Positions 1,243 through 57,306 of a DNA stretch of 64,000 nt are shown here, one piece after another; positions within the stretch are counted from its first letter, which is position 1; each line of letters begins with the position of its first letter. The notes under the pieces are model-generated. The model had not been told where the DNA came from and made no database searches. It saw nothing but the letters and a program-made list of their open reading frames with translations. This DNA comes from Takakia lepidozioides (Eukaryota; Plantae; Bryophyta). The stretch spans positions 28,644,001 through 28,708,000 of the forward strand of contig CM060733.1 in NCBI GenBank assembly GCA_030704615.1. Direction: 5' to 3'. The position numbers and the translations under genes are program-made.

Positions 1243-1400
1243 ATGTGTGGGGCAGCACTACCACTAAGGAGGGGTGTCACTACCACTACCACTATGTGTG
1301 GGGCACCACTACCACTAGTAAGGGGTGTCACTACCACTACCACTATGGGTGGGGCACCACTACCACTAGTGTTGGGCAGTACTACCACTAGTACAAGTGG
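1243..1400. repeat. ~51-bp tandem repeat (about 3 copies) just after the gag stop
   Basis: ATG(T/G)GTGGGGCA(C/G)CACTACCACTA...GGGGTGTCACTACCACTACCACT repeated; seen as the repeating MCGAPLPLVRGVTTTTT peptide. Confidence 0.8.
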
Positions 1401-2730
1401 AGTAAGCTGCGGCAGTGACTCGAGGAGCAGCATGAGTTCCTGAGCCACGGGGTGCGGAGGTGGAGTTTGATCCACAACGTGGGGAGGCAAGCCGTCAGGC
1501 CAGGCTTCCTCAGTCATTCACATTGGTGGAGACAGCGTCGACGCCGTCCATGGCACCTAGTACTCGCCCAACTGTTACCGAGGCGAAGGTTACTATGCCA
1601 TTGGGGAGAGCTACACCTTAGCAATACCACTACCTAGTGTTACTAAGGCTATGGCAGCTAGTGTGTTACTGGGGGCGGCCACATATTTGTGCCAAGCTCC
1701 ATTGTTCTCGGCTACCATGATTGCGACGCCGGGGGTAAGACCAGTTGAGGTGTTCAGGCTGGCAGCTACACTCTGTGAGAGTGAGGAGATTACTACATCA
1801 GAGGAGATAGTGGGAGGTGTAGTGCTGGAGAGATCCTCGGATGTGAGGGTCAAGACTACCACGACGGCGCCATGGCAAGCTGCAGCTGCTAGGTTGGCAG
1901 AGCTGCCAGGTAGGCCAGCCATTGAGCATGCCATGGTGACACCTGGAGTTGTCATGTTAAACAACCAGGATGACATTTTCTGTTTGAGTGGATTGGCAGG
2001 CAAGAGGTACCGGCCACTACGGGTCTTGTTGGACTCGGGAGCTCAGCCATTGATGCTAGGCAGAACTGCTATTGCAGGCTTGGGCCTCGTGGAGGCGGAT
2101 ATGGAGCCGTGCCTTTTCCAGATATAGACATCTCTAGGAGGATCAGAGCGGGCTCGAGGCATGACACGGCATGAGTTGGCTATTAGACTATAGCCGGATC
2201 ATCCTATAGATGGCTCAGTGATGAGAGCCAAGGCCATTGTGATAGACGCGGTCTCGTACAATGTCCTTGTTGGTGGGGTAGTGTTGTACCCCATGGGCTT
2301 CACCCTAGATTTTTTGGAGGAGTCGGCTTCCTATAGGCTTGGATGGTAGTTAAGGGAGGGCCGGCGTGTGCAGCTCCCTGTGACGTTCATAGGAGGAGTT
2401 GCGGTTGCCCACCGAGGCAAGATGTCGACACTGGCAGCATTCACAGCTGCAGTGAGTTGGCCTGAAGAGTTGCTAGAGGGCAACGCTCATTCAGAGGATG
2501 TGTCACCTCCGGGAGAGCAGGATGACATGTATGGTATGGCGAAGTTGTCTGCCATAAATGCTCACACTCCATTGTGGGGCTCGAGCAAGGATTTGCATCG
2601 GATTGTTGATTGTCGTGTGCAACAAGCCTGGGTAGAGGCTTTTGTACCATCAGGAGAGGAGGACAGTGCGGGGATTGCATCAGGTCCACCTCAGTTGTCA
2701 CCATTAGATACCACACAGTGTCCGGATGAA

Positions 2731-3666
2731 GGCATTTGCCTTCTGGACTTGTTTGGCGGGATCAGCACCGGATTGGCTGCTATGCTATAGGCATGTGTAC
2801 GGGTACGGTGTTACTTGTATGTAGAGAGGGATGAGACTGCACGACGCGTCTCACTCCGTCATGTTGCTCAGTTGGTGCAGCAGTACCTTGAGTTGTTACC
2901 GGTGTCTGCAGTTTGTGGATATCAGCAGGCCTTGCCAGCAGACAGTTCGTTGCTGGGGGCGCAGGATTTGGAGCAGGTTGGCTCCATTGATTTAATAGTG
3001 GCAGGTTGGCCCTGCCAAGGGCATTTATCAACCGGGCATGGCAATGGATTGCGAGACTCGAGGTTGGGTCTGTTTTAGGAGATGGTGCAGGTTTTGCGCC
3101 ACTTACAGCTTCATCAAGCTGTATCTCCAGCATACATCTTGGAGAATGTGCCACTGATGGGCGATTCTCAGGCCAGGGTGATGGCCAGTGTGCATCAAGT
3201 CCGGTCGTGGCTTGGTTAGCAGTGTTGCTAGATGCAGCTGCAGTGGGGTCACGGACTCATCGTCCACGGTTATGGTGGACTAACTTGATGTCACATGCAC
3301 TGCTCAAGTGTGCATTTGATGGGGTGCAGCGGCCAGCACACCTCACAGTGGATAGTATTTTGGATACAGGGAGACAGTCTCAGCATGTGAGACACGATGA
3401 CCGTTCGCCTTTGGCAGTGGTCAACAAGGTGGGTCAACCACGAGCAGCACTACCTACACTGCTCAGCTTCCCAGGATCACATGCTTTCCGGGATAGTAGA
3501 CCTGGCCTCATGTGGGATGTTAGTTGCAGCAGTTAGTGGGGCCTAATGCCGATGAGCGAGAGCGGGCTATGGGTTTTTCCACTGGGACCACGGCGGTGCC
3601 TTCTCTTTCTGAGGCATCACGTTTTCAGGTGTTGGGGCAAGCGATGGATCTCAATTGCTTGACCTG
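2731..3666 (+). pseudogene. DNMT3-like C5 cytosine methyltransferase domain within the retrotransposon pol
   Basis: Motifs in canonical order: I LLDLFGGISTG (2740), II YVERD, IV IDLIVAGWPCQG (Cys codon 3013), VI YILENVP (ENV 3142-3150), VIII DAAAVGSRTHRPRLWWTNL, IX ERERAMGFSTG, X RFQVLGQAM. Interrupted by stops at 2788 and 3076 and by frameshifts. Confidence 0.88.
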
Positions 3667-3770
3667 TGTCGTGCGCATATATATCGCTACACAACTACAT
3701 CGCTGTCCAAACCACACCACACATATATGCACAATAAAGTAGTCTGCCACAATGCCACAATCGCCCCCCT
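3660..3770 (-). repeat. Polypurine tract (3764-3770) and 5' ~100 bp of the 3' LTR of copy D
   Basis: Minus strand reads AGCTAGGGGGGCGAT|TGTGGC...TTTGGACAGCGATGTAGTTGTGTAGCGATAT, homologous to 22641-22790 downstream of copy E. Confidence 0.7.
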
Positions 3771-4005
3771 AGCTGGTGGATAGGTCCCTCTACCTCCAGA
3801 TAGCTACAAGATGTAATAGCCACAGCCGTACTAAGTCCTCTATCACTGTCCCTATTGTACTCAAACTCTATAGACCAAGAGGCCGGGTACAAGAGTAGCC
3901 CCATCGTTAGTCGCCGTCTTGCAATCTGTGAACTTGAGCCAGGACTTCGTGTATTCAAGGTCTCATGTAGCTGGGCCTTGCGTTGCTTGTTAGTATCCAC
4001 TCCCA

Positions 4006-4150
4006 CTATCCAATGCATCGTGGACATAACCAATCCCCATCCGGAACCATCTCAAGAGGTGGAGTCAAGCATCCCATATGCCAACCTCTAGAGCATCGAT
4101 CACACACCAGCATGGTGGCTGCCCCTTTAGCAGACCCACACAACATGCAC
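4006..4150 (-). other. PHD finger at the integrase C-terminus
   Basis: CMLCGSAKGAATMLVCDRCSRGWHMGCLTPPLEMVPDGDWLCPRC is a complete C4-H-C3 PHD with the typical PPL..VP.GDW.CP.C tail, in frame with the integrase tail. Confidence 0.92.
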
Positions 4151-7100
4151 CTCAAACCTGCAGATACCACTGCCAGGTTTGGGTCAATCCTGCCATCGAC
4201 ATTCGGAAGGTGACATGGCGCACAATTACGCACATGGTCCTTCCAAGTTATGCCATCCCGACCCTCCAAGACCAAGACGCCTGAGGGCAAGACCTCTCGA
4301 ACCCTCAAAATAACACGTCCTGCAGTCACATCCAGGGTCGTAGGAGCAGTCTGCTGCAGATAGACATAGTCACCAGGGTTGAATATCTGAACCCCAGGAC
4401 GATAGCCCCCACCACGTATGGTAGCATACCTCAACGTATCACGGTGTTGTGCAATGGCAGGGTTCTCGAAAGCCATGGGCATGACTCTCTTGAACAACTC
4501 TGCACGCTGCTCACATGCACGTGCCCACACGTCCGGATCGTCAAGGTTAAGAACTGTAGCAGCTTCTCTGCGAATGGATGTAGGCAAATCCGGCTCTCGG
4601 CCAAAGAGAAGAAAGTATGGTGAGAAGGAGGCAAGTGATGCTTGCATACTGAACCTGTAGCCCATGGCTAACCAGGGTAACTGAAGGTCCCAATCTCCTA
4701 GGTGTCCCTTCTGCAAGCCATACTGCGCAAACCCCTCTTTACTATCTGAACAACTCTCTCTGCCAAGCCATCGGCTTCAGGATGATCCCGAGAAGTGGTG
4801 CGGTGGTCTATCAAGGCCTTGTCACACAAAGCCTGAAACTCCCCCAAGAACTCTCTCTCTTGGTCCGTGAGTACCTCAGCTGGAGCACCGAATCGGCTAA
4901 GCACACAATCCAAGAATGCATACGCAGCTCCCTCACTAGCCTTATCAGGCAATGGAACCAATTCAATCCACTTGGAGAAGTGCTCCACCATCACCAACAC
5001 GTACTTGTTGTGGCGCATGGTCAGTGGCAACGGCCCTGCGAAGTCAAGACTCCACCTGTAGCCCAATCCCATGATCGGAAGAGGGTGCAATTGTGGAGTA
5101 GGGGCGTTGAATGAAGCACGCACCCTATCACACACCATGCACCTAGCCACAAATTGTTGCACCTCTGTGTGCATACCACGCCACCAATACTGCCCCTGCA
5201 GTAGACTATGAGTGCGTCGCACCCCAAAATGCCCCAACTCCTCGTGGGCATGGCGCACTAACCGTGCCCGCTGTGTTGGGTGAGGCACAATCCTCACTCG
5301 ACCATCCTCCCACACTCGGAGCAGGTGTGTCCCCTCCTACTTGAACCTCTTGGCTCGTTGTAGGATCCGATCCCTCTCCTTGGCAATCACAGTGGCTGCC
5401 GTGTCTCCAGTGCGGAGGTAGTCCAACACAACTGAATCCTCATGTATATCTTTGGCGCCACCAGGGTCCTCAGACACTTGATCTACAGTCATCCCTGTTG
5501 TAGGTCCAACCTGGCCTTCCGCTGCCAAGATACACAGAATTGCAGATGCATGCCATCCGGGCACCATCTCCTCGTCCGTCTCACCATGCCACCGAGCTCC
5601 AGTGTCATCTTGTTGGCTCGTGCATGGATTGCGACTCAACCCATCTGCATTGCGATTGACCAAACCCGGTCGATGCACCACCTGAAAGTCATACTCTTGA
5701 AGGATGAGTGCCCACCGTGCAAGCTTCCCCGTAAGCTTGTCTGACTCCATCAACCATTTGAGTGGTTGGTGATCCGTGACAAGGGTGAAGAGATTGCCGT
5801 ATAGATAGCACCTGAAGTGTGCCACGGCCCACACTGCAGCTAAGCATTCTCCCTCATATGAGCTATACTTAGACTCTGCAGCGTTGTTTGAGCGGCTAGC
5901 ATAAGCCACTACGAACTCTCTTCCCTTCATCCACCTGTGTGAGCACCGCTCCAAGCCCCAGCATGCTCCAATCTGTATGCAGCTGAAAAGAACGCCCCCT
6001 GATAGGTCGTCTCAAGATGGGCGCCGAGGTCAACCTCGCCTTGAGCTCTTGAAAAGCTTGTTCTTGCTCATCTTCCCACTGCCACTCCTGGTCCACCTTG
6101 GTCAGCTTGGTTAGAGCCTTTGCAATGGCACTAAATCCCTTAACAAACCGTCTGTAATAATTTGCTAACCCACATGAAAGCTCAAACTCGGCTCACATCC
6201 GTGGGGCGAAAACCTGTGCAATGGACTCTACCTTAGTCTGCTGTACCCCCAATCCTCCAGGATATATCATGTGACCCAGATACTCAATCTGGTTGTGGAA
6301 AAACTTGCACTTGCCCGGATGTAACTTCAATCCGTGCGTCCTTAAGCGCTCAAATACCAGAAGGTGTCTCTCATGCTCCTCCACCAAGTAGTACTAAAGA
6401 TGATGATGTCATCTATGTAGCACCAAGCAAATTCCACCCCTGCTAGAATCCTGTCCATGACTTTTGAAACTCAGCGGGAGCGTTTTTAAGCCCAAATGGT
6501 AAGAACCCCCACTGGTATAGGCAATCCTTCCCGTGCTCATTGATCCCCCAGAATGCCGTCTTTTGCTTATCCGCCTCCTTGATCGGCAACTGTGATATCC
6601 GGATCGTAAATCCAACGTGCTAAAGACCTTGGAATGCCCAATGGCATCAAAGATCTCCTCTGGTGTTGGCATGGCATACCTATCGGACTTGGTCTGACGA
6701 TTTACAGGCCGGTAAGCACCGCACATACGTCTCTCCGTCCAATTGCCATAGACATCCTTCTTAGCTGGCATCACTGTGGCTGAAGCATACTCTCCACCAG
6801 AGAGCTCACCAAACCTGCCTCCCAGAGATCTTGAGTCCTCATCTGAATCAAAGACCTCTCCATGTCACTGTATCTATAGGGTCTCCGAAAGATTGGCGTG
6901 TCAGTGGCCAACTCAATACGGATCTCTTGACCCTTCAGTGCTCCCAAGTCCTTCAAACTGAAGGCAAAGCAATTCCTGTAAGCCCTCAGGAACCGCCGTA
7001 TACGTCGTCTCTCTCCTCCGGTGACAATGGGTCCAATGTCAGGCTCCCAATTGTCCTCCGTAACTGCAACCTTAAGTCCAGTGGGCTTAGAGGTAGAGGA

Positions 7101-7690
7101 CGCGTCCCGTGGTTGCTATGCTGCAACCTCTTGAGCAGTACTCCCTTCCTGCTCAGTCAATGACAAGGCCTCATCCTGCCCCATCATCTCATCATTGAGA
7201 ACCTCCTCATCCCGAGAAGAATCCCCCCACCTCCTCATCCATCACAGCTGCCTTGGCTGCCAACTCCCTCTGAACCTCGAGCACCTCCCACGTGTGCCAT
7301 GGATGTCTACACCCCGTGGTCCTCACCAGCTCGCCCCCACTCGCAGCCTGTACCGTCTCGGTAGGCAGAGAGACCGTCGGGAAGTGCACTCCGCACTCTA
7401 CTTGCTCAGCCATAGCCAAGCTGATAATCCAGGTCAAGCAATTGAGATCCATTGCTTGCCCAACACCTGACGACGTGATGCCTCCGAAAGAGAAGGCACC
7501 GCCGTGGTCCCAGTGGAAAATCCCATAGCCCGCTCTCGCTCGTCGGCATTAGGCTCCACTAACTGTTGCACTGGCTATCCCCCAAGAGGCCAGGTCCACC
7601 ATCCCGAAAAGCAGGGGATCTGGGAAGCCGAGCAGTTGCTTTGTTTAGGTATGCTGCTCGTGGTTGACGCACCCTGTTGGGGACGATCGA
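4006..7690 (-). mobile_element. Ty3/gypsy copy D pol: DNMT C-terminus, RT, RNase H, integrase, PHD finger (degenerate)
   Basis: DNMT motifs IX/X (ERERAMGFSTG, VLGQAMDLNCL) at 7440-7560; RT (RMCGAYRPVN, FSTLDLRSGY, YIDDII); RNase H (LHTDWS, YEGECLA, LVTDHQPLKW); integrase HHCC and D,D,E (WSLDF, VLTDQ, GLAERVV); C-terminal C4HC3. Confidence 0.92.
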
Positions 7691-7749: not shown

Positions 7750-9940
7750 TAGGAACTAGTGTGTTATGAGTAGGGTGGGGGTGTTTGCTAGAAAAAATCT
7801 AGGCCGTCAATGTCACCGTTTGAAGCAAGGTGAGGATGTATGCGGATGTGCAAAGGCTGGGATAGCTGAAGGAGCAAGGATAGAGTGTGGGTCCAGATTC
7901 ATCCAATAGGGCAGGATATCAAGCACAAGATTACTTATGATTCCTAGTGGATTAGAGCTACAAGAAAGTGGGCACCTTCTTCTCGACATATTTCAGCTTG
8001 TTTTAGCCATCTCACCAGACTTGGCCCTGAGATGAGATGCAATTGAATGCTGTAAGTTAGTCGTTGCTGTTGATAAGTAGGGTGGGGGTGTTTGCTGGAT
8101 GGAACAATTTCTAGGCTGTCAATTGTCAGCTGCTAGCAGGAATGCAAAGATGTATGCTTGTTTTTGCAGTGTCATAGAGAGCTGAAGGAGCATGGATAGA
8201 GTATGTGTCCAGATTCATCCAAGAGGGCCGGATTTCAAGCTCCACGTTACCTATGATTCCATGTGGAAGGATAGATACAAAAAACCTGCATGGATAGATG
8301 GTCGACTGGAAGCCGCAACAGCAGCGGCACAATTGATAAAATCATGCACTTCTAATGAAGGCACCTTCTTCAACACATTTCACCCTGTTTTCCCCCCTTA
8401 TCAAAATTGGCCCTCAATTTTCATGTTGAATTCTGCAAGTTAGCTGTTGAGTGAATGTAGTTGGGAGTGACTTTGACATGATACTGCCAATGTGACAAGG
8501 ATATGCATTGAACTCATTGGTAGAGGGGATATTGGGATAAACTCTTGGCCATTTGCCATCGTCAAAGCTGAAATTGTACTAGTTGTCATTCTGAACACTG
8601 CCCTGGTGGACATGTATGCCAAATGTGGGTGCAGCAAGCCTAATGCGAAGGGAGAGTTCGACAACATGGCTAAATGAGATGTGGTGTTGTGGAGTTCCAT
8701 GATTGCAAGGTATGTGCAACATTGGTGTGAGATTAAGGCTTTGGAAACCTAAGAGCAAATGATGTGGGAAAGGATGAAGCCAGACCATGTCATGTTCATT
8801 TGTGTTTGTAATATGCATATGCGAGCCTAGAAGCAAGGGGCCAAGAGGTTCATGGTGACATCATCAAAGCTGGAATTGTACCTGATGTCATTTTGAACAT
8901 TCCCTTGGTGTACATGTATGTCAAATGCGAGCCTGGTAGCCCTGGAAAGGACGCAACGGTCCACGGTGACATTGTCAAAGCTAGTATTGTACCACTAGAT
9001 GTCTCTAAACACTGCCTTGGTGGACATGTATGTCAAATGCAAGCCTGGCAGCCCTGAAAAATGGTGCAGAGGTCCACGGTAATATCGTCAAAGCTAGTAT
9101 TGTATCTGATGTGATTCTGAATGTTGCCGTAGTGGACATGTATGCCAAGTTTGGGTAAACTACAAGGATACAAATGGCATGCAGTTTGATAATATGGCTG
9201 AATGAGATGTGGTATCAGCCTAGCCATAATTGCACTTAACTAGAGTAGGCAATGAGTGAAGACGGGGTTCGTGGTGACATTGTCCAAGCTAGAATTGAAT
9301 TGATGTCGTTCTGAAATATGCCCTTGTGGTGAGGGCATGCAGAGCATGAGCGCGGGATGGGGTTTTGGAGACCTGAAAGCAAATGATGGGGGAAGGGGTG
9401 AAGCTCGACCACATAATGTTTGTGTGCGTTTGCAGTGCGTGTGCAAGCCTGGCAGCCCTGGAAAGCACATGCAAAGAGGTACATGTTTGCTTCACCAAAG
9501 CTGGAATTGTACCAGATGTGATTCTGAACAATACCCTCGCGGGCATGGATAGCTGAAGGAGCAGGGATAGAATGTGGGCGCAGATTCATCCAAGAGGCCG
9601 GATTTTCAAGCTCCAGATTACCTATGATTCATTATGGAATGATAGCTAGAAGAAACCTGCATGGGTAGATGGTCAACTGGAAGCCGCAGCAGTAGCGGCA
9701 CAATTGATAAAATCAGGCACTGCTAATGAAGGTAGTGGATTGCTAAAGTTCGAGAGATGTCAGTGTATGCATCTTCTGCTCAGGCATTTGAAAGTCTACA
9801 TAGACTTTGCAGCTTTGTGCATTTTTGTAGCAGCACCGGATTAGATTATGGAATGGATCTTTGAACATTATGTCACGTTGTATTTGAATCGATGTTCCAA
9901 TTTCAATGTGCTTTCATGTTTCAATGCTGCTAGAGTTAGG
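7750..9940 (+). pseudogene. Patchwork of PLS-PPR fragments and the repeated YKKPAW module
   Basis: ILNTALVDMYAKCG and other L/S motif remnants at 8560-9540; three copies of the QIHPRGPDFKL...YKKPAW(I/V)DG module; many stops. Confidence 0.75.
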
Positions 9941-12330: not shown

Positions 12331-14139
12331 CCATAAGCAAGAGAGTGTGGAGATAGGGTAGTGGGATGAGAGCATGTTGTGATATGAATTACTTTAGTCT
12401 CTCTTCCTTGTAGTCTTCCACCCTCTCTGTAGGCCAAAACCTTTCTGTAGGTGGAGGCAAGAGTCAGTCCGGGTTTGGGCTGGGGTGTCTTGCAGGAGCG
12501 ACACTGTGGAGTGTTTTTGGTATGGGGGAGTTACTATTTTGATTTTCTTGTGCTTGGATCCCCTCCACACCTGCATGCTTGACTGTCCGCCATGTTAGTT
12601 TTGTGTGGGCGCTTGTTTTCATAAGAGGTTGGTCCGGATTTGATCACCGGTCAATCCTAGAGTGTGCTGTCGATGGTGAGGCTGGGGCGATGACCAGTCA
12701 GACCATCATTGTTCTCTTATGGTGAGGCTAGGTTGATGACCAGCAGACCATAAGAGTGCTTGCGGTGGATGCAGGTGCAGATACAGGTCTACGTTAGAAA
12801 ATTATTTCTGCTTGAACTAGTAGCCGCAACAGGTTCTCTACCCGGTTACCTTGTAGAAAGTGGGGATTAGAGACAGGTTGACAACCGGTTTGAGTGTGAG
12901 TTTTCATCACGGAGGTGCCACCAGTTGCTGAGGAGAGTGCCGGTACGAGCACCAGCGATACTAGTGGGTATACAAGACAAGGTGTGTGGTTTAGGCCACC
13001 TTCACCTTCAGTGTCTTCTGAGGAAGGTTCAGACTCAGAGTTAGGAGGATTCTCGCCGAGGGTGCAAGCCATTTTTGTGCCATTGTTGTGGGATACGATG
13101 GAGGAAATGTATTGAGCTACTAAGGGGCCACGTCGGCACCATCGAGCTTGATGATTTCATACAGGAGTTTGATAGTTGGTGTGATTTGCAGCAGATGCGC
13201 AATCCACAACTGTTTACGCCTTTTATGGCGTGGAAGGGGCTGAGGGGCCACCTATGGATGACTATCATGAGTTTAGGCGGGGAAATGAGGTGGAGATTGA
13301 GGAGTGTCGACAATATTGGTCATCTGACTATGTCTCCATCACTAGAGGCACAAGGGCAGCGGCGACACCAACAACAACACCAACATCCCCAACTGCAAGC
13401 ACTAGTAGTGGGACAAGTAAAGATGGAGCTGGGAAATCCACTCAAGCTCCTGCTGCAGCACCAGCACCCGTGCCTACCTTTAACCCAGTTGTGGAGTTCT
13501 TCGAGGAGTTGAGGAGAAACTACCAGGGGATAAGGACGGATAAATTGCGGAGCTTGCAAGAGTTCCAACGCAAGCCTACTGAGAGTTTGAGGGAGGCTTA
13601 CACGCGCATGAGGCGATTGATAAATGTAACCCAAGGAGTTACGGAAGCTCAAGCAATCCAATTTTGGTATGGGATATTGGACAAGGAGCTGAGGAGAAGG
13701 GTGCGGGATGCAACTCTTCTACAAGTGGACCAGCCCACCTTAGCAAACGTGTTTTTGCTGGTAGAGCGGATAGAGCTCAATATGGTGGAGGAGCGAGTGG
13801 TCATGGTGGGGTTTGGTAAGGAGACACAACGAAGTGGGGCTCCTAGTCAACAACAACCACTACCCCAACGTGTTCAAGGCAACAAGGGGGCTCAGGCGAA
13901 GCCCAGGGAAAGAGATGATCTCAATTGCAGAGGTCACTTCCTTCATTCTCAGGCCAACAACAGTCGGATGTGACATGTTGGGATTGTGGAGGACCCCATG
14001 TTAAGAGAGATTGCCCGAAGAGAGGCAAAGGGCCGGCATAGGCACAGCCTACACAACTACAATGTGGGCATTGTGGCAAGTATGGGCATGAAGAGGCCCA
14101 TTGTTATGACTTGCATCCTGAGCTACGGCCAGGCCAGTT
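12331..14139 (+). mobile_element. DNMT-PHD gypsy copy B: LTR 3' part plus gag (truncated at both ends)
   Basis: gag IELDDFIQEFDSWCD...FQRKPTESLREAYTR; two CCHC knuckles (CWDCGGPHVKRDC ~13977, CGHCGKYGHEEAHC ~14063); similar to 62350-64000. Confidence 0.85.
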
Positions 14140-14278: not shown

Positions 14279-17200
14279 CCTGGGGGGTGCACTCTTTATA
14301 AAATGTCTGTATCACGTGCGTTCGCCGCCTAATAAAAAAAACCCCCTATATACGGGTCCTTGGATCATTTATACCCCCTCTGTACATACATTTTGAAGAT
14401 TATAAAACCCCCTCATGTAAATATATAAAAATTTGTAATTTAAAAAAAATACCGCCTTCTGTATGTATATTTTCCTTTCCAATAATTAAAAAATACCCTC
14501 AAATATGTATATGTATGTTTTATATTATATCAAGTTTATTCATTTAAAAATAGAATAAAAATCTAATTAATTAATTAAAAAATCTATTTGCCCTCGATAA
14601 AACTTGTTGTGGAATCTCACTTTGAACAAAAATCAGATGCAGAGAGGAAGGGACATTGTCAATGCCCGATGTGCAAGAGGCCTGAAGAAAGTTTCCATTT
14701 TCTGATATACAGTCCTGGGTATTTTCATCAGAGAGTGAACCTCTTGAAGACCATCAAGACCTAGTCACTGCACCTCTGTTCATCAACTAGGACAGTTTCT
14801 GAACTTGTTCTACAGTTTCAACCTTCGTAAGGTCCAATTATATTCAAAACCTACTATTGAGAATTCCTCTCCAAAAAGAGATTTCGTGCGCCTTTGCTGC
14901 CACTGTTGGAGTCCAACCTGCCTCGCAGTTGATAGAGTTCAATACATTCAATTAGGTGACAAACATTTCATTTCACCAATACTCCCCACAAGAACAAACA
15001 CCATTTTGGAAGTGGTGAAAGCGGTTTGCATCCCGTACAACAATCTCTTGCTTAGCTCTCTTTGAGATGAATTTGGTGGCTGTGTGGCAATCACCACACA
15101 TCTGAAGATTCCTAATGATCCCAAAGACATCCCAGAGGGTGCGTTGATAAGCCAAAAACAATGGCCAACTTCTCATTGTGGTGGCAAAGAGACGATTCTT
15201 TAAGCTCTTCCTCAACATCATGCAATGCAAAGCGGGCTTCACCCCTTCGCACATCATTTGCTCATAGGTCTCCAAAGCCTCCATCCCGCGCCCTTGCTGT
15301 GCATATCCTGCAATCATCGCACTCCACGACATCACATCTCGTTCAGCCATACCGTCGAACACTCCCTTCATACATGTCCACGAGGGTATTGTTCATAATG
15401 ACATTTGATACAATTGCAAATCTGACAATGTCGCCATGGACCTCTTTGCCCTTTTCCAGAGCTGACAGGCTTGCACACGCATTGCAAATGTACACAAACG
15501 TGATGTGGTTGGGCTTCACCCCTTCCCCCATCATTTGATCATAGGTCTCCAAAGTTTCCATACCACGTCCCTGCTGTGCATACCCTACAAGCACCGCACT
15601 CCACGACACCACACCTCGTTCAGCCATGGAAACTCCCTTCGCATCCTTAATGCACCCATATTTGGCATACATGTCCACCAGGGGAGTGTTCATAATGACA
15701 TCTGGTACAATTCCAGCTTTGACAATGTCACCATGGACCTCTTTCCCCTTTTCCAGAGCTCGCAAGCTTGGACACTCATTGCATCCTGCTAACATTATAT
15801 TCCACGTGATCAAAGATCGTTGAGGCATTCTGTTGAACACTTGGTGAGCATCGATGATACTCCCGCACATAACATACATGTTGACAAGGGTGTTGAGTAG
15901 AAAAACATTGTGGACTCCCTCTCTTGATCCTCTTTCAGAAGCTGTGGTCATGGTTGAGGTGCCTGATTTTATCAACTGTGCCGCTGCAGCTGCAGCCTTT
16001 AGTTGACCATCTACCCATGCAGGTTTCTTGTAGCTACTGACCCCCACATGGAATCAAGGTAATCTGGAGCTTGAAGTCTAGCCCTCTTGGATGAATCTGG
16101 ACCCACACTCTATCCATGCTCATTCAGGAAAAAACAGGGAAAAACAGGCTGAAATGTGTTGAAGAAGGTACCTTCATTAGCAGCGCCTTGTTCTATCAAA
16201 TGCACTGCTGCCGCTGCTGTTTCCAGTTGACCATCTACCCACGCAGCTTTCTTGTAGCTATTGATCCGCAGGGAATCAGAAGTAATATTGTGTTTAAAAT
16301 CAATCTCTTGGATGAATGTGTTCCTCGACACCACCTCGTTCAGCCATAGTGTTGAACACTCCCTCCGCATCCTCAATGCTCCCACAAATGGCATACATGT
16401 CCACAAGGGTATTGTTCATAATCACATCCGGTACAATTCCAGCTTTGGTGATGCAACCATGCACCTCTTTGCCCTTTTCCATGGCTGCAAGCTTGCACAC
16501 GCACTGCAAACGCACACAAACATGATGTGGTCGAGCTTCACCCCTTCCCCCATCATCTGCTTTCAGGTCTCCAAAGCCCCATCTCGCGCTCCTGCTCTGC
16601 ACACCCTGCAAGCATCGATTTCCACGACACCACATCTCATTCACCATAGTGTTGAATATTCCTTTGGCATCCTCAATGCTCCCACATTTGGCGTACATGG
16701 CCACCAGAGCAATGTTCAGGATGACATTTGGTACAATTGCAGATTTGATGATGTCACCAGGGATCTCTTTGTCCTTTTCCAGGGCTGCCAGACGCACTGC
16801 AAACGCACACAAACGTTATGTGGGAGGTTTCACCCCTTCCCCCATCATTTGCTCATAGGTCTCCAAAGCCTCCATCCCGTACCCCTGCTGTGCATACCGT
16901 GCAAACATCACAATCCACGACACCACATCTTGTTCAGCCATAGTGTTCAGAATGACAGGTAATCTGACAGGCATTCACCTTTTTGCCTCGGTTGTCCCAC
17001 CATTGACTGGGGTCAGAAAAGTATTCATTCCACAGCTTCTCCTCATCTCTGTTACCTCTTTTAGGATACTTTCCTGTTATCAGTTGGGAGTATCATGTCA
17101 AAGTCACTCCAAACTATCAAAGATTCACTCAACCAGCTAACTTGCAAAATTCAATATGGAGATTTAGGGCCGATTCTGATAAGAGGGAAAAACAGGGTGA

Positions 17201-19294
17201 AATGTGTTGAAGAAGGTGCCTTCATTAGCAACGCTTGATTTTATCAATTGTGCCACTGCTGCTGCAGCTTCCACTTGACCATCTATCCATGCAGGTTTCT
17301 TGTAGGTAATCATAGGTAATCTGGAAAACGGCTCCTGGCAAATCACCTTCATCTTCCCAGACAATCTTCTCAGCTCAGCATGGGATTTCCTTAATTCTGG
17401 GATGCAACTTGTCATCTACAACGAAGGTGAGCACCTTGTTGCAAACCTCAATGCAGCAGCGACCTGGCTCCTTTTCAACCCCTCTGACCTTCATCATTCT
17501 TCTCACCTTTACAGTATCAACCCACCTGCCAGCTACTGCATAGATGTTTGATAGCAACATAAGTCGCGACATCCTGTTCATTCCACTTGAGGATAGATGT
17601 TGCCGCACGTTCAGGTCCACTGCCTCATCCAGTTGTCCCCCACGTCCAAGAAGGTCCACCATGCAGCCAAAGTGCTATACTGTCGGAGTGACACCATGAT
17701 CTTGAATCAAGGAATCGAAGTAGTGTCTTTCTTCATTCAGAAGGCCAGTGTGGATGCATGCAGAGAGAACACAAACTGCTTCAAGCCGTTCTTTTGCATT
17801 CCTTCAAATAGTTGCAGGACCTCCCTATGACAACCATGCTGTGCATATCCTACGATCATTGCATTCCACGATACCACATCTCATTTAGCCATATTGTCGA
17901 ACACTCCCTTTGTATCCTCCATGCACCCACATTTGGCATACATGTCCACCGGGGCAGTGTTCAGGATCACTTTTGGTACAATTCCAGCTCTGACGATGTC
18001 GGCATGCACCTCTTCGCCCTTTTCCAGGGCTGCCAGGCTTGCACACGCACTGCAAACGCACACAAACGTGATGTGGTCGGGCTTCAACCCGTCACACATC
18101 ATTTGCTCATAGGTCTCCAAAGCCTCCATCCCACGTCCCTGCTGTGCATACCCTGCAAGCACCGCATTCCACGACACCACACCTCGTTCAGCCATAGTGT
18201 CAAACACTCCCTTTGACTTTGTAAATGAAGATAGGTCCCTTTGATGGGGCATGGATTGTAGTGGTTTCGCAGTCCTACTTGTTGTTTCCTCGTCGCCATG
18301 TCCATCTTCTACTTTGGGGCGGGGTCAGGGCTGGCAAGGTTTTAGCAACCAGTGTCATGACTCTCTCTCTCTTCCTCTTTGTTCTGCCCAATCTGGGTGC
18401 AGGATCTATGGCCACAAGGCTATCATGAGTACTTTCTCCCTCACACACACCTCTCCCTGTTCCGCCCAAACTGGGCATGGACTAGGTAAATAGCCACAAT
18501 GCAATGACAAACGTCGTATGAGTACATTTCGCTCTCTCTACTCTTGGCAATAGACTGAAATTGAAATGCAGTCGGGGAGCGTACCTTTGAACAAACAAAC
18601 AGATGCAGAGAGGAAAGGTAGCCTATCAATGCCCGACGTGCGGGAAGCCTGAAGACTAAACATTTTCTGATAGACCCTCTTCACTTACATCAAGAACAGA
18701 GTCCTTGCACGGCTGTTCGCCAAGATGCACCCACATTTTGCAAACATATCCACCAGGGTATTGTTCAGAATGACAGCTGGTACAATTCCAGCTCTAAAGA
18801 TGTTGCCATGGACCTCTTTCCCCTTTTCCAGAGCTGCCAGGGCAGTGTTTAGAATGACATTTGGTACAATTCCAGCTTTGACGCTATCCCCATGCACCTC
18901 TTTGCCCTTCTCTAGGGCTGCCAGGCTTGCACGACGCCACATCTTGTTCAGCCATCTTCGCGGAAGGGAAGTCGAACGCGGGAGAGGAGATGAGAAGAGG
19001 AGAGGGAAAAGAAAAAGCCGTCGGAGGGAAGGGGAGAAAGATCGCGGGAAGACAGAAAAAAAAAACCAAACAAAAGGATGAACCCGCGACTTAATCCCGC
19101 GGTGCATCGCAGCCTAATCGTCGTTCTTACCACTACACTACCCCTGAAAACTCAACAACCCCCTCATGTAATATTATATTTAAGGTGTTTTAAAACCCCC
19201 TCTGTATGTATAATGTTGTACATGGGGGGTTTAAAATACCCCCTCCTGTGCACGCACATGGCTGGTACATTTAATGAGGAGTGCACCCCCCAGG
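14279..19294. mobile_element. Non-autonomous Pack-type TIR transposon (5016 bp) carrying PPR-DYW fragments
   Basis: Perfect 16-bp TIRs CCTGGGGGGTGCACTC / GAGTGCACCCCCCAGG; 8-bp TSD TTGGAGAT at 14271-14278 and 19295-19302; removing the element restores TnpD MCMLEMHIPPSFFD; ACCCCCTC(A)TGTA subterminal motifs at both ends; no transposase inside. Confidence 0.9.
14973..18960 (-). pseudogene. Fragmented PLS-class PPR / E-E+ / DYW RNA-editing factor sequences
   Basis: Repeated P-L-S units ([26 protein letters not shown]; ACASLAALEKGKEVHG; NTALVDMYAKCG); E/PG box LLSNIYAVAGRW..GVEKEPGRCCIEV (~17440-17560); DYW domain [16 protein letters not shown] / [29 protein letters not shown] (14973-15230). Confidence 0.9.
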
Positions 19295-21684
19295 TTGGAG
19301 ATGCACATTCCTCCCTCCTTCTTTGACATCCACACTTGATAGTGCACTTAGTGGAAGAGGCTTCGATTACCGGCCCCGTTCATTATCGGTGGATGTACTT
19401 CCTTGAGCATTATATGAAGACTTTGAAAAGATTTGTAAGGCAAATGGCGCACCCGGAGGGTAGCATGGCGGAGGGGTATACGTTGCAAGAAGCTATGTTC
19501 TATTGCACGGAGTACATGGCAAGGGTGGATGAGGAAGCCCCTCGGATGTGGAAGGAGGATGCACGAACCAATGACATCGTTTTGCCCAAAAAATCGAAGA
19601 GGGTAAAATTGCCGACCTTGGTGATTGAGCAAGCGCATGACTTCATACTGAAGAACACCCCATCCATACATGAGTGGGAGACAAGATACAATAATCTGGT
19701 TCAGCAACGAGAGGATGAGACACTTGCATGGAGGCGGAACCATCCAAGGCCGGTTACTAGACGCCCACGACGAGGAGCGGGCCGCCGGAATGTTTCTTCA
19801 CAAAATTTGCCCATGGAATTGCAGCCTCTAAGTTCATTCCAACAGTGGCTTCGGACTTCAGTTTATGACGCCGTTGCTCAAGGAGAGGTGGTTTCAGATT
19901 TGGTGCAAGACATTGCAAGGAGCCCTTCTCAATTTGCGACCTCATACACGGCGGTTTGGGTTCATGGTCGTCATTTCCGCATTCGTGCTCTTGACATGAA
20001 GCGCAAAACAACCTTTGATTCTGGCTTGTGTGCCACATATTGGCAAGACTCCATGTGGGGCAAGGGAGATACACGACCTGCTATGAGCAAACTTGAGTAC
20101 ATTGGAGAGCTTGAGAACGTACTCCAACTTCAGTATACAAGGTAGCGGCCTCTTCTCTTCAAGGAAAGATGGTTCCAGCCACATCTGTGGGGCCCTTCGC
20201 AACACTAGTGCAAAATGATTGTGGTTTCATGCGCATCAATGCAGATAGGCTCAACCCTACTCATCGTCCCTCCGATGAGCTTTTTTCACGACTTTCAGAC
20301 ATGGAGCAAGTTTTCTTTTCCGATGACAAAACAAGAGGGGGGGATTGGAAGGTGGTTGTGCATGCTCAGCCAAGAGAAAGACGTATCTATCATGGTCACG
20401 GATCTCCATGGGGTGAGGCAATTGCGGTGGACGGAGAGACTGGTTATAATGATGCTGATGATGGAGGTTGGGTAGAGGGGTAGAAGAGGATGATGATGCC
20501 CCGGACAATGCATCCTGGACCCTATATGATGAAGCTCTAGAAGATACGGATGTTGGAGAAGGAGACAAAGACACGGCCATTGACAACGAGGTGGAGGATG
20601 ATTTGGAGGTGCCTTTTGAGGGCCGGGCCATTTATGACGATGACTCCGATGACCAAGAAGACTTGTTGCTTGATGAGGATGAAGAAGCTCCGGATGATGA
20701 TGTTCAAGTTGATTAGACACAAAATCAAAGCTACATAACAATTCTCGCACCGAATTGGACCCATCTCTTTGATTGATTGTACATGTACATGCATATTGTA
20801 CTTTATTTCTATGATTGATCAAATATGGCTGTGGCTGATAGTCTTTTAAGAAAGAAGGCAGAAGCAATGAATATGTTGGAGCGACACATACAGATGTGGT
20901 ATCAAAAGAATTATCAAAATGAATGTCACAATCTACAAGAAGGTCCACAACAACAAGCTAAACCATTAAGAAAAACAAACACCCTACCCCAGTACCATAT
21001 GAAAAAAAAAAAAAAAACTAAGAACCCCAAAGGCCCTAAACTTAAACCTAGAAAGCCCTGCCGTCGATGCTTGCAACCCCCACGCGTCGGCACCTGCGAC
21101 GCGGTTTTTAGGATTTATGAGGCCGGGGGTTGCAAACGGCGACGGCCAACCGTCGCCAACTGCGACCTGTTTTTTTGAATGGATTTATGAGGCCTGGGGT
21201 CGCAAACGGCAATGGCCAGCCGTCGCAAACTAACCTGTTTTTTTTGTTTTGCAAGAATAGGGCAGCCGGGCAATTTGCGATGCCCCGCCATCGCAGGGGC
21301 CTTTTGCCCTTCATGTCACCATGCGACGGCCTGACGTTGCAAGAAAGGGCTGCGATGAAAGAAATGGCAAGAAAGGGTTTTTTTTTTCGGCGTGCAACGA
21401 CCGGTCATCGCTAGAAAGGGCTGCCTTCTGCTCTTCGCTTGGGGGGGGGGGGGGGGGGGGCACTTGGGCGTCGCACGGAAGGGCTGTCTTTTGCATTTTA
21501 TCCGCACGTGCGACGGTCAGGCGTCGCCATCTGGCCCCGGCGCTAGGTGGCGACCCGTGGGATTTGGCTGCGACGGCCCGACGTCGCAAATACGCTCCGC
21601 GGGGTTGGCGTCGCATGCTCAGCGCCGCGCGGGGCGTGGGGCCACAGCTGACATCGCAAACCCCCCCCCCCATTTGCTGTAGTG

Positions 21685-23283
21685 TGGTTTGCAAAAGAGA
21701 TACCTAGGATATTGGGATCTTCATGTACCTTGGTTAGCCATGGGCTACAGGTTTAGCAAGCAAACATCACTTGTCTCATTCTCACCATATTTCCTTCTCT
21801 TTGGCCAAGAGTCGGATTTGCCTGCATCTATTCGCAAGGAGGCTGCAGTAGTCCTCAACCTTGATTATCCGGATGTATGGACACAAGCATGTGCCCAACG
21901 GGCAAAGTTATTCAAGAGAGTCATGCCTATGGCTTTTGAGAATCTTGCTATTGCCCAACACCGAGACACATTGAGGTATGTCACTATGCATGGAGGGGGG
22001 TATCGGCCAGGTGTTTGGCGTTTCCACCCTGGGGACTATGTGTATCTGCAGTAGAGAACGCCTACGACATTGGATGTCACAGCAAGACATGTGATTCTAA
22101 GGATCAGGGAGGTGTTGCCTTCAGGAGTATTGATTTTGGAGGGTCGAGATGGCATGGTATGGAAGGACCATGTACGCAATTGTGCGCCATGTCACCTTCC
22201 ACATGTGGATGGGAGGATAGATCCCAACCTTGCAGTGGTACCTGCAGGATTGTGTTGCTATGTGGGCATGCTCGTGGTGCCGCCACTATGCTGGTGTGTG
22301 ATCGATGCTCAAGAGGTTGGCACATGGGATGTTTGACACCACCTCTTGAGAGGGTTCCTGATGGAGATTGGTTATGTCCGCACTGCTTGGGATAGTGGCA
22401 GTGGATATGACTAGTGGCAGCTAACAAGACATGGGAGGCCAAGCTCATGGAAGTCAATACCCGAGATCTCAGACTCAAGTTCACAGGTTGCAAGATGACG
22501 ACTAACAATGGGGCAACTCTTGTACCCGGCCTCTTGATCTATCGAGTTTGAGTGTAGTAGGGACAGTGGTGGAGGACTTTGTGAGGCTATGATCACTATC
22601 ACATCTTGTGGCTACCTGGACTTAGAGGGACCTAAACGCTAGCTAGGGGGGTAATTGTGATGGACTAGTGGCTCCACTAGTGGTGGCTAGTGGCAACCTA
22701 GTGGTGCACTAGTGTTTGGTGTGCACATGTGTTGTGTGGTTTTGGACAACGACGTAGTTGTGTAGCGATATGTATGCACACCACAACTGTCAAGTTATTT
22801 TACCACTAGTGTGAAGTTAGCTAGGAAATAGTTAGCTTTTATATATTGACATTTGGGATTGACCCAAGTGTTAATCCAGGGGCCAATATATGTTTGGGCA
22901 CCTGACGTTGTTATCTTCACGACAGATCGCGGTGGGTTCATCTTTATTGAGTTGAGCCTCACCGCGTCTAGTTATGGCGCCGTAGTGTGGATTCCCCATG
23001 GCGTGGGGTGCACTTGGCTCGACTTAATATGAATGATGTTTTCATGTGCAAATGTGTGAGTTTGAGAGAGCTTGTGTGCTTGTATCATTCATTTCTTTCT
23101 TTATCATTGTGATGGACTAGTGGTTGTACTAGTGGTGGCTAGTGGTCGCCTAGTGGTTGGACTAGTGGTTGTCTAGTGGCAGCCTAGTGGTGGACTAGTG
23201 GTGGACTAGTGTTTGGTGTGCACATGTGTTGTGTAGTTTTGGACAACGATGTAGTTGTGTAGCGATATGTATGCGCACGACAC
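21685..23283 (+). mobile_element. DNMT-PHD gypsy copy E: integrase tail, PHD, PPT and partial 3' LTR with a duplicated LTR start
   Basis: Peptides 21689-22395 are near-identical to copy D (WDLHVPWLAMGYRFS...MLVCDRCSRGWHMGCLTPPLERVPDGDWLCPHC); PPT AGGGGGG at 22645-22651; LTR starts TGTGATGG at 22656 and again at 23108. Confidence 0.88.
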
Positions 23284-23818
23284 CTTTATTACATTAATTT
23301 TTAAAGTAAAACTCTAGATTTTTTGTGACATTTAAAAAAAAAAAATGGGTGGAAGGATATTGCTCTACAGTATTTTTTAAGTAATTTAAAAAAAATTACC
23401 TCAAAAGAATAAACTGCACCCTATATTTGTTCTCACGTGGTTTTGAAAATACGGGGAGTGACCCCCCCAAGGCAGATAGTAAGTGCCTAAACCATTCAAT
23501 TTTGATGTTTTCATGCAGTGAAAATCTGCTGCCACAGTAGTAGTTCAGTTTACTCGATGTAGTCATTTCATTGACTGGAGGCAGTGAGCATACAATCACT
23601 GTGTAGCCACTACAGGTTTATGAAGAGGACTTAGGATTATTATGTCATTCTTTATCAAGGGTTTAATATATATATATATATATATATATACTGGTTTTCA
23701 CTATGTTTTGTTGTGGTCAACAGAGAATGAGCATATAAAACATGCACGTGATGCATTCACAATTTCATGAAGACGAAACCAATCCACACGTGCACTCCCC
23801 ATTGAGTATCCCTCGACA

Positions 23819-39222: not shown

Positions 39223-42200
39223 ATGGGCAACGTTGTGTCACGGGTGGTGGGGTGCTTTAAGCCCCGACGGGATGACAATGGCGGGCCAGATGTTGCTTTC
39301 TCAGAGCCTTTGGACGAAGGGTTGGGCCATTCGTTCTATTATGTCCGCCCCGCATTGGCCTCGCCCGCCCACTCTCCCGTCCAGCAGCAATCGGAGGAGA
39401 TCTCTTCAGAATTTGTCCTCAATTCTGACACCACTTCAGAATCGGATGCCCACAGCGGGGAGTATATGAGAGGACTTCCCAACGTCGATTCTGAGAAAAT
39501 AAGGGATGAATCAGAGCTCAAACTGGTGGAGAGATCTAGAGTTGGCTGGGAAAAGCCCAAATTTGTGGGCAACGACAAATCCAAAAGCCTGTCGGAGACC
39601 TCTTTCAAGGCAATATCAGGTGCATCTGTCAGCGCCAATACGACCACCCCCCGCTCCGTTAATTCGCTAGAACAGTTCAATTCCTTCTCTAATATACCCT
39701 ATGATCGGGCGGCTGCTTTTGAAAGCACATCCTCCTTTAGTGCCATTCCTCTCCAACCTGTTCCCAGGGGCGTTATTGCCAACTCGGGTCCCATCTCAGG
39801 ACCTCTCTCAGGTCCCATGTCCGGGCCCCTTGACAACCGGGGCTTTCTCTCAGGGCCTTTGGAGAGAGGATTTCCTTCAGGTCCTTTGGAGAGGGGATTC
39901 ATGTCAGGTCCATTGGAGAGAGGGTCTATGTCTGGGCCGATAGAGCCAGTGGATCGCACCCACTTCTCTGCACCCTTGGCAGGTCCCTTCCCCAAGAAAA
40001 GGAGGAGTTCTCTTGCCCGGTTTGTAACAACAATGAGCGGACCAGTAAGGAAAGCCATAGCCAGAACTGTGTCAAAGACATCAGCCACTCTTGCACGCAC
40101 CCAGCGATCTCTTGTCCTTCCCATGAAGCACCTCGTCTTGGGCGAGGGGAGGTACAAGGATCGTCCGAAAGGTTCTATAGACTCACCATTGGATATGGTG
40201 AGCTACACAAGTTCAGAACCAGATTTGACTGAGAGTGACAACCTTCAATGGGCACAGGGCAAGGCTGGCGAGGACCGTGTACACGTTGTATTGTCTGAAG
40301 AGCACGGGTGGCTATTTGCAGGCATCTATGATGGGTTTAATGGTCCCGATGCCACTGACTTTCTCATGAGTAATTTGTACCCAGCAATCTATAGAGAGCT
40401 TAAGGGACTTCTTTGGGATCAGAATGAGGGCTTTGATTTTTCCAATTGCAGCCCAACTGCAGGAGGAGGCAGTGGTTTAGGAGGGGTGGGATCATATGGG
40501 CCGGGAGGAAAAGACGTTGAGGGGCAAGGTGGGAACTTTCTAGATCGGCTGAGTCCAGTGGCCTTGGATCATCATGTTTGGGAGGCATTTGAAAATAATG
40601 GGGGCTCTACTGGTGTGGAGCTCAACAGTGGTAGAGCTGAGGATGATGAGAGAAACAAGTTAAGAGATGGGCAGAACATAGATCAAACTCATCCATGTTC
40701 TTTGCCTGTAAGAACTGTGGAGGAAGCTGGTTTCAGTTCTGCAACAGAGCACCAGCATGAAAACTGCCTGCTGGCATTACATGGCAATGACACTGACAGA
40801 GATTTCTTACAAGTGAATGGAAACATGCTGGACTGTTGTCCATGTTCTTGGGTTGAAAGTGCAGTGGATGATGAAGCTGTACACAATTCGGCAACAGACA
40901 ACCAGCATGCAGAATGCATACTGGCTGAAAACAGTCTGGACTGTATCTGTCAGGTAGAGAAGATGGTGCGTGTGGATGAGGGAATTCAACAAAGGGGTGC
41001 AATGGAAGGAAATGAGCAAGCAGAAAAGAGCCCCAGGCCATCGGCAAATGGGTCCAGTGCTGAGGGAATGCTAATGCTGGAACAGGACAAAAAGCTTCAG
41101 GATAGACTAAATTTAGACCAGGCAGGTGACGAGGCTCCTCTGGTTGTAGAGTTGCAGCTGGACAAACTGGAGCAGACTGTGCCAGACTTAGAACAGAAGT
41201 CAATTAAAGAGAGGAATCTATTGGGCCTGAAAGTGCGGCAGTTGCGTGATCACCACCGTGAACAGCACCGAAAGTACTTGAAGTGGAGGTAGAACTAATC
41301 ACATTGGAGATTCAAGTTTGATGCCATGGATTTTTTGCCACTCTTGGGTGTTCTTTCTGTGTCCTAAAGCATTATTGATCAACCACGCTGGAGATATGCT
41401 TTTCTAGATAGATAGGCTTCTTGTCACAACGAGTTGTTTTGCTTTCTAGCTAGAAGCTTCTTATTGCTCAATTTACAGGATGTCTATGTAGTATAGGTAG
41501 ATGGATGCACACTTATCAAGTTAGAAGAACTTCTGTTGGTCTGTCTGTCGTGCAGTAGTTCTCATATGAGATTTTTAGTTAATTTTTAATCTGTTCAGTC
41601 TCTGTTCAATTGTGGGTAGGTCTGACTGGGAGCAAGAAAGGCTGGTGGCTGAAGAGCGACTCAGAGAGAAACTTCAACAGGAGCACAAGGCCCGAGATGA
41701 CAACAAGGGTTCTGTCGATCACAATGCCGTTTTGAAAGCACTGGCCCGAGCACTGGAAACAACGGAAGATGCCTATTTTGAAATGGCTGACAGGTAGTCC
41801 TTTGCTCTGGTGGTACGAGAGATTTTAGCATGGTTTGGAGGCACTCACTACATGCTTTCTAAATCTGAAACCATCGGGGTTTGTATCTTGGGGAAATCTG
41901 TAACGTCCTATTTCCCCCCTCCTCTAAAAAATCAGCCTCTGCTCCATCTCTGTTCCCCCCTTCCCCCCTCTCTCTTTCGTAATTCTACTGTGTCCCATTC
42001 TACTGAACCCTGATGGACGTATTTGTCTTCTGGTTCTCTCTCTCTCTTCCTGCGGCTACAGCAGACAAGTCTTCTGATCCTGCAGATGCAAGTTTTTCTT
42101 TTTTCTTTTCTCATGCAAGATTGTTTTTGATTGGCAGGGTGTTAGATGAGAATCCTGAACTCGCGCTTATGGGATCCTGCGTGCTTGTAATGCTCATGAA

Positions 42201-57152: not shown

Positions 57153-57306
57153 TCACCCCCTCCTCTAGCGTCGAGTTCCTCGAGGAGCAGTAAAATCTTG
57201 GACTTGCTTAGAGTTGGAGAACCTCCCTCCTTAATATGTATCAGATACACTGAATGTGGAGTGTTCACCTTGAAGCTAACTTGGCTGACATCATCGTTGT
57301 GACATC

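Follow-up and report, generated by a model that had tools for sequence, protein, structure and literature searches.

KnitGypsy-Dnmt3 of Klebsormidium nitens is a Gypsy retrotransposon whose DNMT3-type domain evolves under purifying selection (de Mendoza et al. 2018, PMC5890265). No activity of this DNMT was seen in yeast, a result held to be inconclusive by its authors, and the same article describes as unclear what DNMTs do when carried by retrotransposons. The family described here, studied in a 64,000-nucleotide stretch of the Takakia lepidozioides genome (contig CM060733.1; hereafter the window), fits this kind of element, split repeats included: Gypsy domains (RT-RH-INT) are combined with DIRS-like split repeats in both (PMC5890265). 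In KnitGypsy-Dnmt3 the DNMT is located in the Pol ORF (PMC5890265), whereas a conserved stop groups it with gag-PR in the clade of the window; moreover, the present family also occurs in liverworts and volvocine algae, against Klebsormidium for KnitGypsy-Dnmt3. A K. nitens integrase (P0111, 49% identity) ends without a PHD finger, the likeness to KnitGypsy-Dnmt3 being otherwise by description. The term "PHD" does not occur in the main text and three supplementary text files of PMC5890265; the count leaves aside the figures, of which Figure 4c may show a PHD. No paper reporting a PHD and a DNMT3 domain in one Gypsy element was found in a search that lay outside figures, bioRxiv supplements, subscription journals and Repbase.

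PHD fingers have been described as widespread in retrotransposons (PMC6673714) and are present in Chlamydomonas Gypsy elements (PMC9940879). In REM1 and Gypsy-7a_cRei, as here, a Gypsy polyprotein carries a PHD, to which the steering of insertion has been attributed; insertions of Gypsy-7a are 2.6-fold enriched between genes, PHD-guided integration being proposed rather than shown (PMC9940879, PMC8557442, PMC6673714). Unlike the present family, Gypsy-7a has no DNMT among its listed domains, the two being compared by description. Chromoviruses share with the present family a histone-reader fold placed after the integrase C-terminal domain, but the fold is another one and the lineage is distant (32% identity at best, long branch in a quick RH-INT tree); the chromodomain has a methyl-lysine cage, whereas an unmodified-H3 pocket is predicted for the present PHD. 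EpiLTRs also pair DNA methylases with a histone reader, but with a chromodomain, a DAM and a DNMT sister to DNMT4, and the PHD is unmentioned in the text of that preprint (bioRxiv 2026.05.21.726589).

The PHD finger and the decayed copies of the window

Window domains were mapped using stop-free ORFs and local profiles. The following features were assigned to copies C, D and E of the family and to a chromovirus.

1397..3666, plus strand: copy C, interrupted by the inserted copy D; it holds a gag remnant, a protease (1996-2391) and a DNMT3-type domain in decay (2728-3666)
3663..4005, minus strand: 3' untranslated end of copy D, matching the B-repeat ends of copy E
4006..4149, minus strand: C4HC3 PHD finger ending the copy D integrase (stop codon 4008-4006; first Cys at 4149; Pfam PF00628)
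4237..4368, minus strand: four-strand beta domain of the copy D integrase C-terminus, directly before the PHD (AlphaFold)
4704..5285, minus strand: zinc-binding domain and core of the copy D integrase (PF17921, PF00665)
5691..6078, minus strand: RNase H of copy D, frameshifted
6265..7082, minus strand: reverse transcriptase and N-terminal part of copy D, frameshifted and with stops
7400..7684 (approximate), minus strand: 3' part of the copy D DNMT3-type domain, joined to the D linker and RT; the 5' part of D is missing
21686-22395, plus strand: integrase tail and PHD of copy E (Pfam and similarity to D), with a frameshift between the first two Cys
22661..23285, plus strand: 3' end of copy E with B1 (22661-22788) and B2 (23158-23285) of split direct repeats, 86.8% identical
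57507-57310, minus strand: chromodomain of an unrelated chromovirus (PF00385, E 1e-15)

The integrase-tail ORF of copy D (4776-4006, minus strand) ends in a complete C4HC3 PHD finger, as the sequence-only reading had claimed. It matches PF00628 with an E-value of 2.1e-11 (44.1 bits for a cut-off of 24, profile positions 1-47 of 47), and the eight zinc ligands (8/8) as well as the conserved Trp of PF00628 are present. The PHD of copy E is 87% identical to it over 46 amino acids and matches PF00628 at E 7.8e-10 (profile 3-47), so the likeness noted earlier stands; it does not end the integrase in one frame, since a frameshift near 22258, between Cys1 and Cys2, puts it out of frame with its own integrase.

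The strands of the beta domain correspond to residues 28-71 of the 4449-4009 translation in the AlphaFold model (modest pLDDT), and we take this domain to be SH3-like. The PHD, which follows it directly, was rightly placed where chromoviruses have a chromodomain: the C-terminus of the copy D integrase has a PHD instead of a chromodomain. The chromodomain reported at 57.3 kb was recovered as listed above, in a distant element whose integrase is 29% identical to that of copy D. Among intact relatives, the beta domain has a dN/dS of 0.01-0.02; for the PHD, 0.06 was obtained from two intact-copy pairs, a third pair being saturated, and about 0.15 between copies D and E. For the DNMT, values of 0.07 and 0.11 were obtained. 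The PHD of copy D is real and ordinary for its family.

Copies D and E are both dead. By tblastn against intact relatives, the frame of copy D is broken near 7460, 6815, 5926 and 4730, the last break splitting the integrase core from the PHD-bearing tail, and four stops interrupt its RT-RH-INT stretches. Its 3' end, a CA at 3667 with one 4-base target-like flank, falls inside the DNMT of plus-strand copy C, so that copy D is nested in copy C and has lost its own 5' part. No DNMT adjoins copy E within the window.

Several other sequences were observed in the window. Gag-containing 5' pieces of the same family are found at 12355-14131 and 62256-63978 (plus strand), and 343-957 matches the region upstream of these two pieces. 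Many decayed repeats occur on both strands at about 7760-9730, 15230-18940 and 48750-49460, the translations of which presumably resemble PPR motifs. A DUF4218 ORF (19327-20145, plus strand, E 1e-23), a weak PP2C match (42007-42597, plus strand) and a 661-nt tandem duplication with 92% identity (43348-44669) were also recorded. The observed/expected CpG ratio is 0.90 in the chromovirus (57200-60000, minus strand) and 0.38-0.54 in the DNMT3-family copies, for a window mean of 0.49; it amounts to 0.56 and 0.81 in the intact relatives L001 and L081.

The PDB sequences nearest to the PHD are those of CHD4, PHF12, KDM5A/B PHD1, ATXR5, BHC80, DPF3, BAZ2 and UHRF1; the solved relatives closest to it read H3 tails that are unmodified. 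With a mean pLDDT of 61 (63-81 in the PHD part), the AlphaFold model has its structural matches in the same PHD group and lies within 0.8-1.9 Å of the BAZ2, DPF and ATXR5 PHDs over about 48 residues. Pocket residues were mapped on KDM5A PHD1 and UHRF1, in which the R2 aspartate and the A1 pocket are described as essential (bioRxiv 715474, PMC3214078). The window PHD has equivalents of the whole A1 pocket (KDM5A L309, P331, G333 and W335) and of the R2 aspartate (D312). The A1 pocket is kept in 25/25 close and 92/96 distant relatives, the R2 acid in 24/25 and 92/96. The K4-contacting acid (E305 or D292) and the second R2 acid (D315) are absent from the window PHD. As the E305-equivalent acid is found in 0/25 close relatives, against 57/96 distant ones, the window PHD may bind H3 weakly.

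The K4me3-cage Trp position, which we assume to be two residues before the His, is occupied by Gly in the window and is aromatic in 0/25 close and 1/96 distant relatives; the aromatic cage that the sequence-only reading wished to look for is thus missing. Such a cage is needed for K4me3 reading by PHDs (PMC3214078), and the window PHD was rejected as an H3K4me3 reader. UHRF1, which binds H3 via R2 whatever the methylation of K4 (PMC3214078), is the best analogy for it.

It is improbable that the PHD is conserved for a function unrelated to histones (for example to bind DNA, to multimerise the integrase or to contact a host factor) and owes its resemblance to H3 readers to inheritance. Acids equivalent to E305, D306 and D315 of KDM5A have indeed disappeared from the window clade, whose PHDs have a median net charge of +1, against -4 in the distant relatives; however, nearly all members retain the A1 pocket and the R2 aspartate. 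The PHD probably serves to tether the integrase to free H3 tails rather than as an ADD-like partner of the DNMT.

Linkage of the PHD finger and the DNMT3-type domain

A search with the integrase tail gave 161 relatives, of which 120 were listed. Among the matches listed, the named hosts are Marchantia, Calypogeia, Klebsormidium, Pleodorina, Volvox and Haematococcus, the closest named relative being a Marchantia protein (76% identity). The 612-aa gene model P0001 (Marchantia Mp_7g09570), which joins the protease end, part of the DNMT, the integrase tail and the PHD, is probably no gene of the host but a mis-spliced copy of the element. No relative was detected by a scan of IMG/VR.

We collected 82 related loci, 80 by RNase H peptide patterns and two by an RNase H pattern together with an integrase pattern. 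A DNMT lies upstream in 47 of the 52 loci having enough upstream DNA, a PHD lies downstream in 50 of 53 informative loci, and both are present in 30 of the 34 informative RNase H-picked loci, which form 28 clusters at 99% identity and only 3 at 80%. Two of the exceptions, L072 and L074, are internal inversions in which both domains are still present. A DNMT-only profile retrieved 431 representatives at E < 1e-30; of the best 150, which were examined, 52 proteins extend at least 180 aa beyond the integrase core, and 48 of these carry a PHD. The co-occurrence that the sequence-only reading proposed to count is therefore found from either side, and the idea that separate PHD and DNMT subfamilies merely recombined here is excluded by these two counts.

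A chance pairing, brought about locally by the nesting and recombination of copies, can practically be dismissed. The window copies are nested and truncated, D ending inside the DNMT of C, but the same order recurs in 30 of the 34 loci, the DNMT tree and the RH-INT tree divide according to the same two layouts, and the intact relatives L001, L002 and L081 refute it.

The best PDB matches of the DNMT domain are DNMT3A/B/C (E 6e-8 to DNMT3A, against 0.04 for DRM2). It is of unpermuted DNMT3 type and has the catalytic residues: among 50 full domains, the Cys is kept in 48, the Glu in 48 and the Arg in 49. Intact relatives that are apparently high-copy exist (L001, L081). The ends of L081 are identical over 127 nt; L081 and L082 are an intact element on contigs of a genome titled uncultured cyanobacterium, a probable eukaryotic contamination of that bin. 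The elements end in TG...CA, with 4-base target duplications in L059 and L073 and 3 of 4 bases in L042. These three loci hold complete split direct repeats (A1..B1-A2-B2), whereas copy E of the window shows the B1/B2 pair only. The B1-A2 joint in L059, L042, L073 and at 22661-23285 of the window reads CA-nn-TG and resembles the junction that integrase ends form in a circle; once integrated, the element spans A1 (TG) to B2 (CA).

Two layouts were distinguished: the DNMT is placed either before the RT, as in the window type, or between RNase H and integrase, in a second type that includes Pleodorina. The second type forms one set of 37 rows with a support of 99 in the quick RH-INT tree. A DNMT tree, for which the 20 rows of the window type were all used along with 35 of the 121 rows of the second type, separates the same two layouts (support 98; one change, against 16 in shuffles). 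In both layouts, the PHD follows the integrase. A PHD-only clade (P0073, P0089, P0091, P0096) falls inside the second type with a support of 99 in the quick RH-INT tree, and a DNMT without PHD is found in P0122, P0129, P0195, P0226 and P0235. Since the PHD stays behind the integrase in both layouts and losses go both ways, it is an accessory of the integrase and not of the DNMT.

Second-type proteins such as P0033, P0084, P0086, P0109 and P0129 have an extra C-terminal 300-450 aa after the PHD, in which a Tudor-like domain matches PF21743 weakly and an adenine-methylase-like domain matches PF02086 weakly. Among 71 long tails of this type, 67 match their own profile and 34 the Tudor-like one, and both methylase motifs are kept in only 3. 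In a profile search of the PDB with the algal-type tails, PHD proteins and one Ty3 polyprotein were among the best 60 matches listed. The layout DNMT3, PHD, Tudor and DAM-like in one ORF is absent from the EpiLTR text (bioRxiv 2026.05.21.726589).

These data bear on the comparison with animal enzymes made by the sequence-only reading. In DNMT3A/B, the ADD domain is a reader of unmodified H3 encoded together with the DNMT3 catalytic domain. By contrast, the present reader is a canonical C4HC3 PHD, about 1100 codons from the DNMT in the clade of the window and beyond a stop. It is unlikely that PHD and DNMT3 form one reader-writer unit of this kind, steering integration and methylation to H3K4-unmethylated chromatin. 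The tight PHD-DNMT linkage speaks for such a unit, as do the proteins having DNMT and PHD in one chain (58/129, in a sample biased towards PHD), the K4 acid kept in 57 of the 96 distant PHDs and the DNMT standing directly before the integrase in the larger clade; against it, the stop separates the two domains in the window's clade, the PHD-only clade and PHD-less DNMT elements exist, and the position of the DNMT varies while the PHD stays on the integrase. The ADD analogy is not supported on these grounds. What stands of the proposed pairing is one element lineage in which both domains are under purifying selection; one reader-writer protein it is not. Reader and writer serve the same element and are not one module like ADD-DNMT3A.

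The in-frame stop between DNMT3 and RT

Two further features were assigned to copy D.

7110..7118, minus strand: in-frame TAG CAA CCA (TAG 7118-7116) between gag-PR-DNMT3 and RT-RH-INT-PHD, a predicted leaky stop in frame with the RT start
6999..7109, minus strand: RNA stem with a long loop, predicted 3' of the stop (one arm at about 7109-7088, the other at about 7024-6999)

The domain order in the clade of the window is gag-PR-DNMT3-(TAG CAR YYN)-RT-RH-INT-PHD. In the intact L001, 1369 aa of gag-PR-DNMT, a single TAG and 1047 aa of RT-RH-INT-PHD follow one another in one frame, and the same single stop precedes the RT in L002, L081 and L003. The "one polyprotein" of the earlier reading had to be given up on two accounts, copy D being frameshifted with four stops and the clade having this in-frame TAG between DNMT and RT.

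A TAR-CAR-YYN motif is located about 350-375 nt before the RT in 23 of the 55 loci covering the site; 6 of these contexts are strict CAR-YYA like the window and 17 read CAA-CCC or CAA-CCT rather than YYA. Of the loci without the motif, L013, L015, L025, L026 and L028 have abnormal spacing or no DNMT there, and most others belong to a sister subfamily (14 loci) with no shared stop from protease to RT. In that subfamily PR-DNMT-RT form one frame, offset from gag, likewise in P0015 and P0122; the DNMT shares its ORF with the RT in L059-L062, P0015 and P0122, and not in the window's clade. A DNMT made at Gag level would thus not be family-wide, as the sister subfamily, P0015 and P0122 have no such stop.

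UAG-CAR-YYA is a plant readthrough motif (PMC2754532, PMC3159437), and an in-frame stop with CAR-YYA and an open frame beyond it was found in the window and in 6 loci. The single in-frame stop, its CAR-YYA context and a predicted stem with a long loop, which begins 8-15 nt further downstream, are shared with the readthrough sites of TMV-type plant viruses, MuLV gag-pol and SIRE1 pol-env (PMC2754532, PMC3159437, PMC2194720). The stop follows gag or pol in MuLV and SIRE1, whereas here, with readthrough predicted, it follows protease and methylase (PMC2754532, PMC3159437, PMC2194720). No report of a leaky stop after a DNMT was found in the literature searched, outside of which lay figures, bioRxiv supplements, subscription journals and Repbase.

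The duplex of the window stem has a predicted energy of -22.6 kcal/mol, equalled in 2 of 387 slid controls. Of 20 related sequences, 18 outdo at least 95% of their slid controls, in windows chosen post hoc after inspection. Stem arms pair at -12 to -31 kcal/mol within a clade, apart from one pair at -10.6, and at -4 to -15 kcal/mol across clades. RNAalifold returned no consensus structure across clades, a register scan gave no clean shared helix, and of nine single folds, eight had a z weaker than -2.2.

In two public runs (1633 and 2105 contigs), no change of at least 20% affecting TAG-CA is among the variants listed, and the one listed variant inside the stop motif keeps the pyrimidine; the alignable depth rises at the stop. 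We consider it rather improbable that the TAG is an ordinary stop and that RT-RH-INT-PHD comes from a spliced or separately initiated message. Such a case would resemble the gag-pol stop of Candida Tca2, whose bypass has not been shown to be readthrough (PMC2194720), and gene callers do begin ORF2 after the stop. However, the six bases 3' of the stop keep to the readthrough motif in clades that share only 40-57% identity in the flanking linkers, no conserved ATG begins ORF2, and 7.6 kb contigs from two RNA libraries, which may be DNA, are colinear across the site with no joint listed. Expression is not indicated by the RNA runs X1-X4, which consist of contigs and contain only 0.05 of the words. 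Because the TAG separates gag-PR-DNMT3 from RT-RH-INT-PHD, production at Gag levels is likely for the methylase, and readthrough would be the only source of the PHD-integrase. This leaky-stop arrangement is the part of the family worth following.

A proposed mechanism for the family

On balance we favour, as a probable account, that the locus is a dead copy of a green-plant Ty3/Gypsy lineage with a DNMT3-type methylase, in whose relatives the PHD tethers the integrase to free H3 N-termini and a DNMT3 made at Gag level methylates the element's own cDNA. In this mechanism, most ribosomes would stop at the TAG and a minority would read through it, so that Gag-PR-DNMT3 would be abundant and RT and IN-PHD rare. 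The protease would then free DNMT3 and IN-PHD as separate proteins. The PHD would bind H3 A1-R2 with little reading of K4, and would for that reason favour nucleosomal DNA rather than one mark; in this way it would tether the integration complex to free H3 tails. The DNMT3 packed in the particle would methylate the new cDNA, hiding or quieting it. From the stop, DNMT3 is predicted to be as abundant as Gag in the particles, which suggests methylation of the own cDNA and not targeted methylation at the insertion site.

A more extended account is advanced tentatively, as a possibility. An old green-lineage Gypsy clade may have tuned the dose of its own methylase by recoding, with a TMV-type leaky stop and a 3' stem after DNMT3, a methylase at capsid level and cDNA methylated before the PHD-integrase is tethered to H3 tails; the algal branches would add Tudor-like and adenine-methylase-like domains after the PHD.

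The data extend the Gypsy-DNMT3 association from one charophyte to liverworts and volvocine algae. Natural variants with and without the stop, the PHD, the DNMT or the K4 acid are available for comparison, and the clade makes both the role of a retrotransposon DNMT and PHD-guided integration testable.
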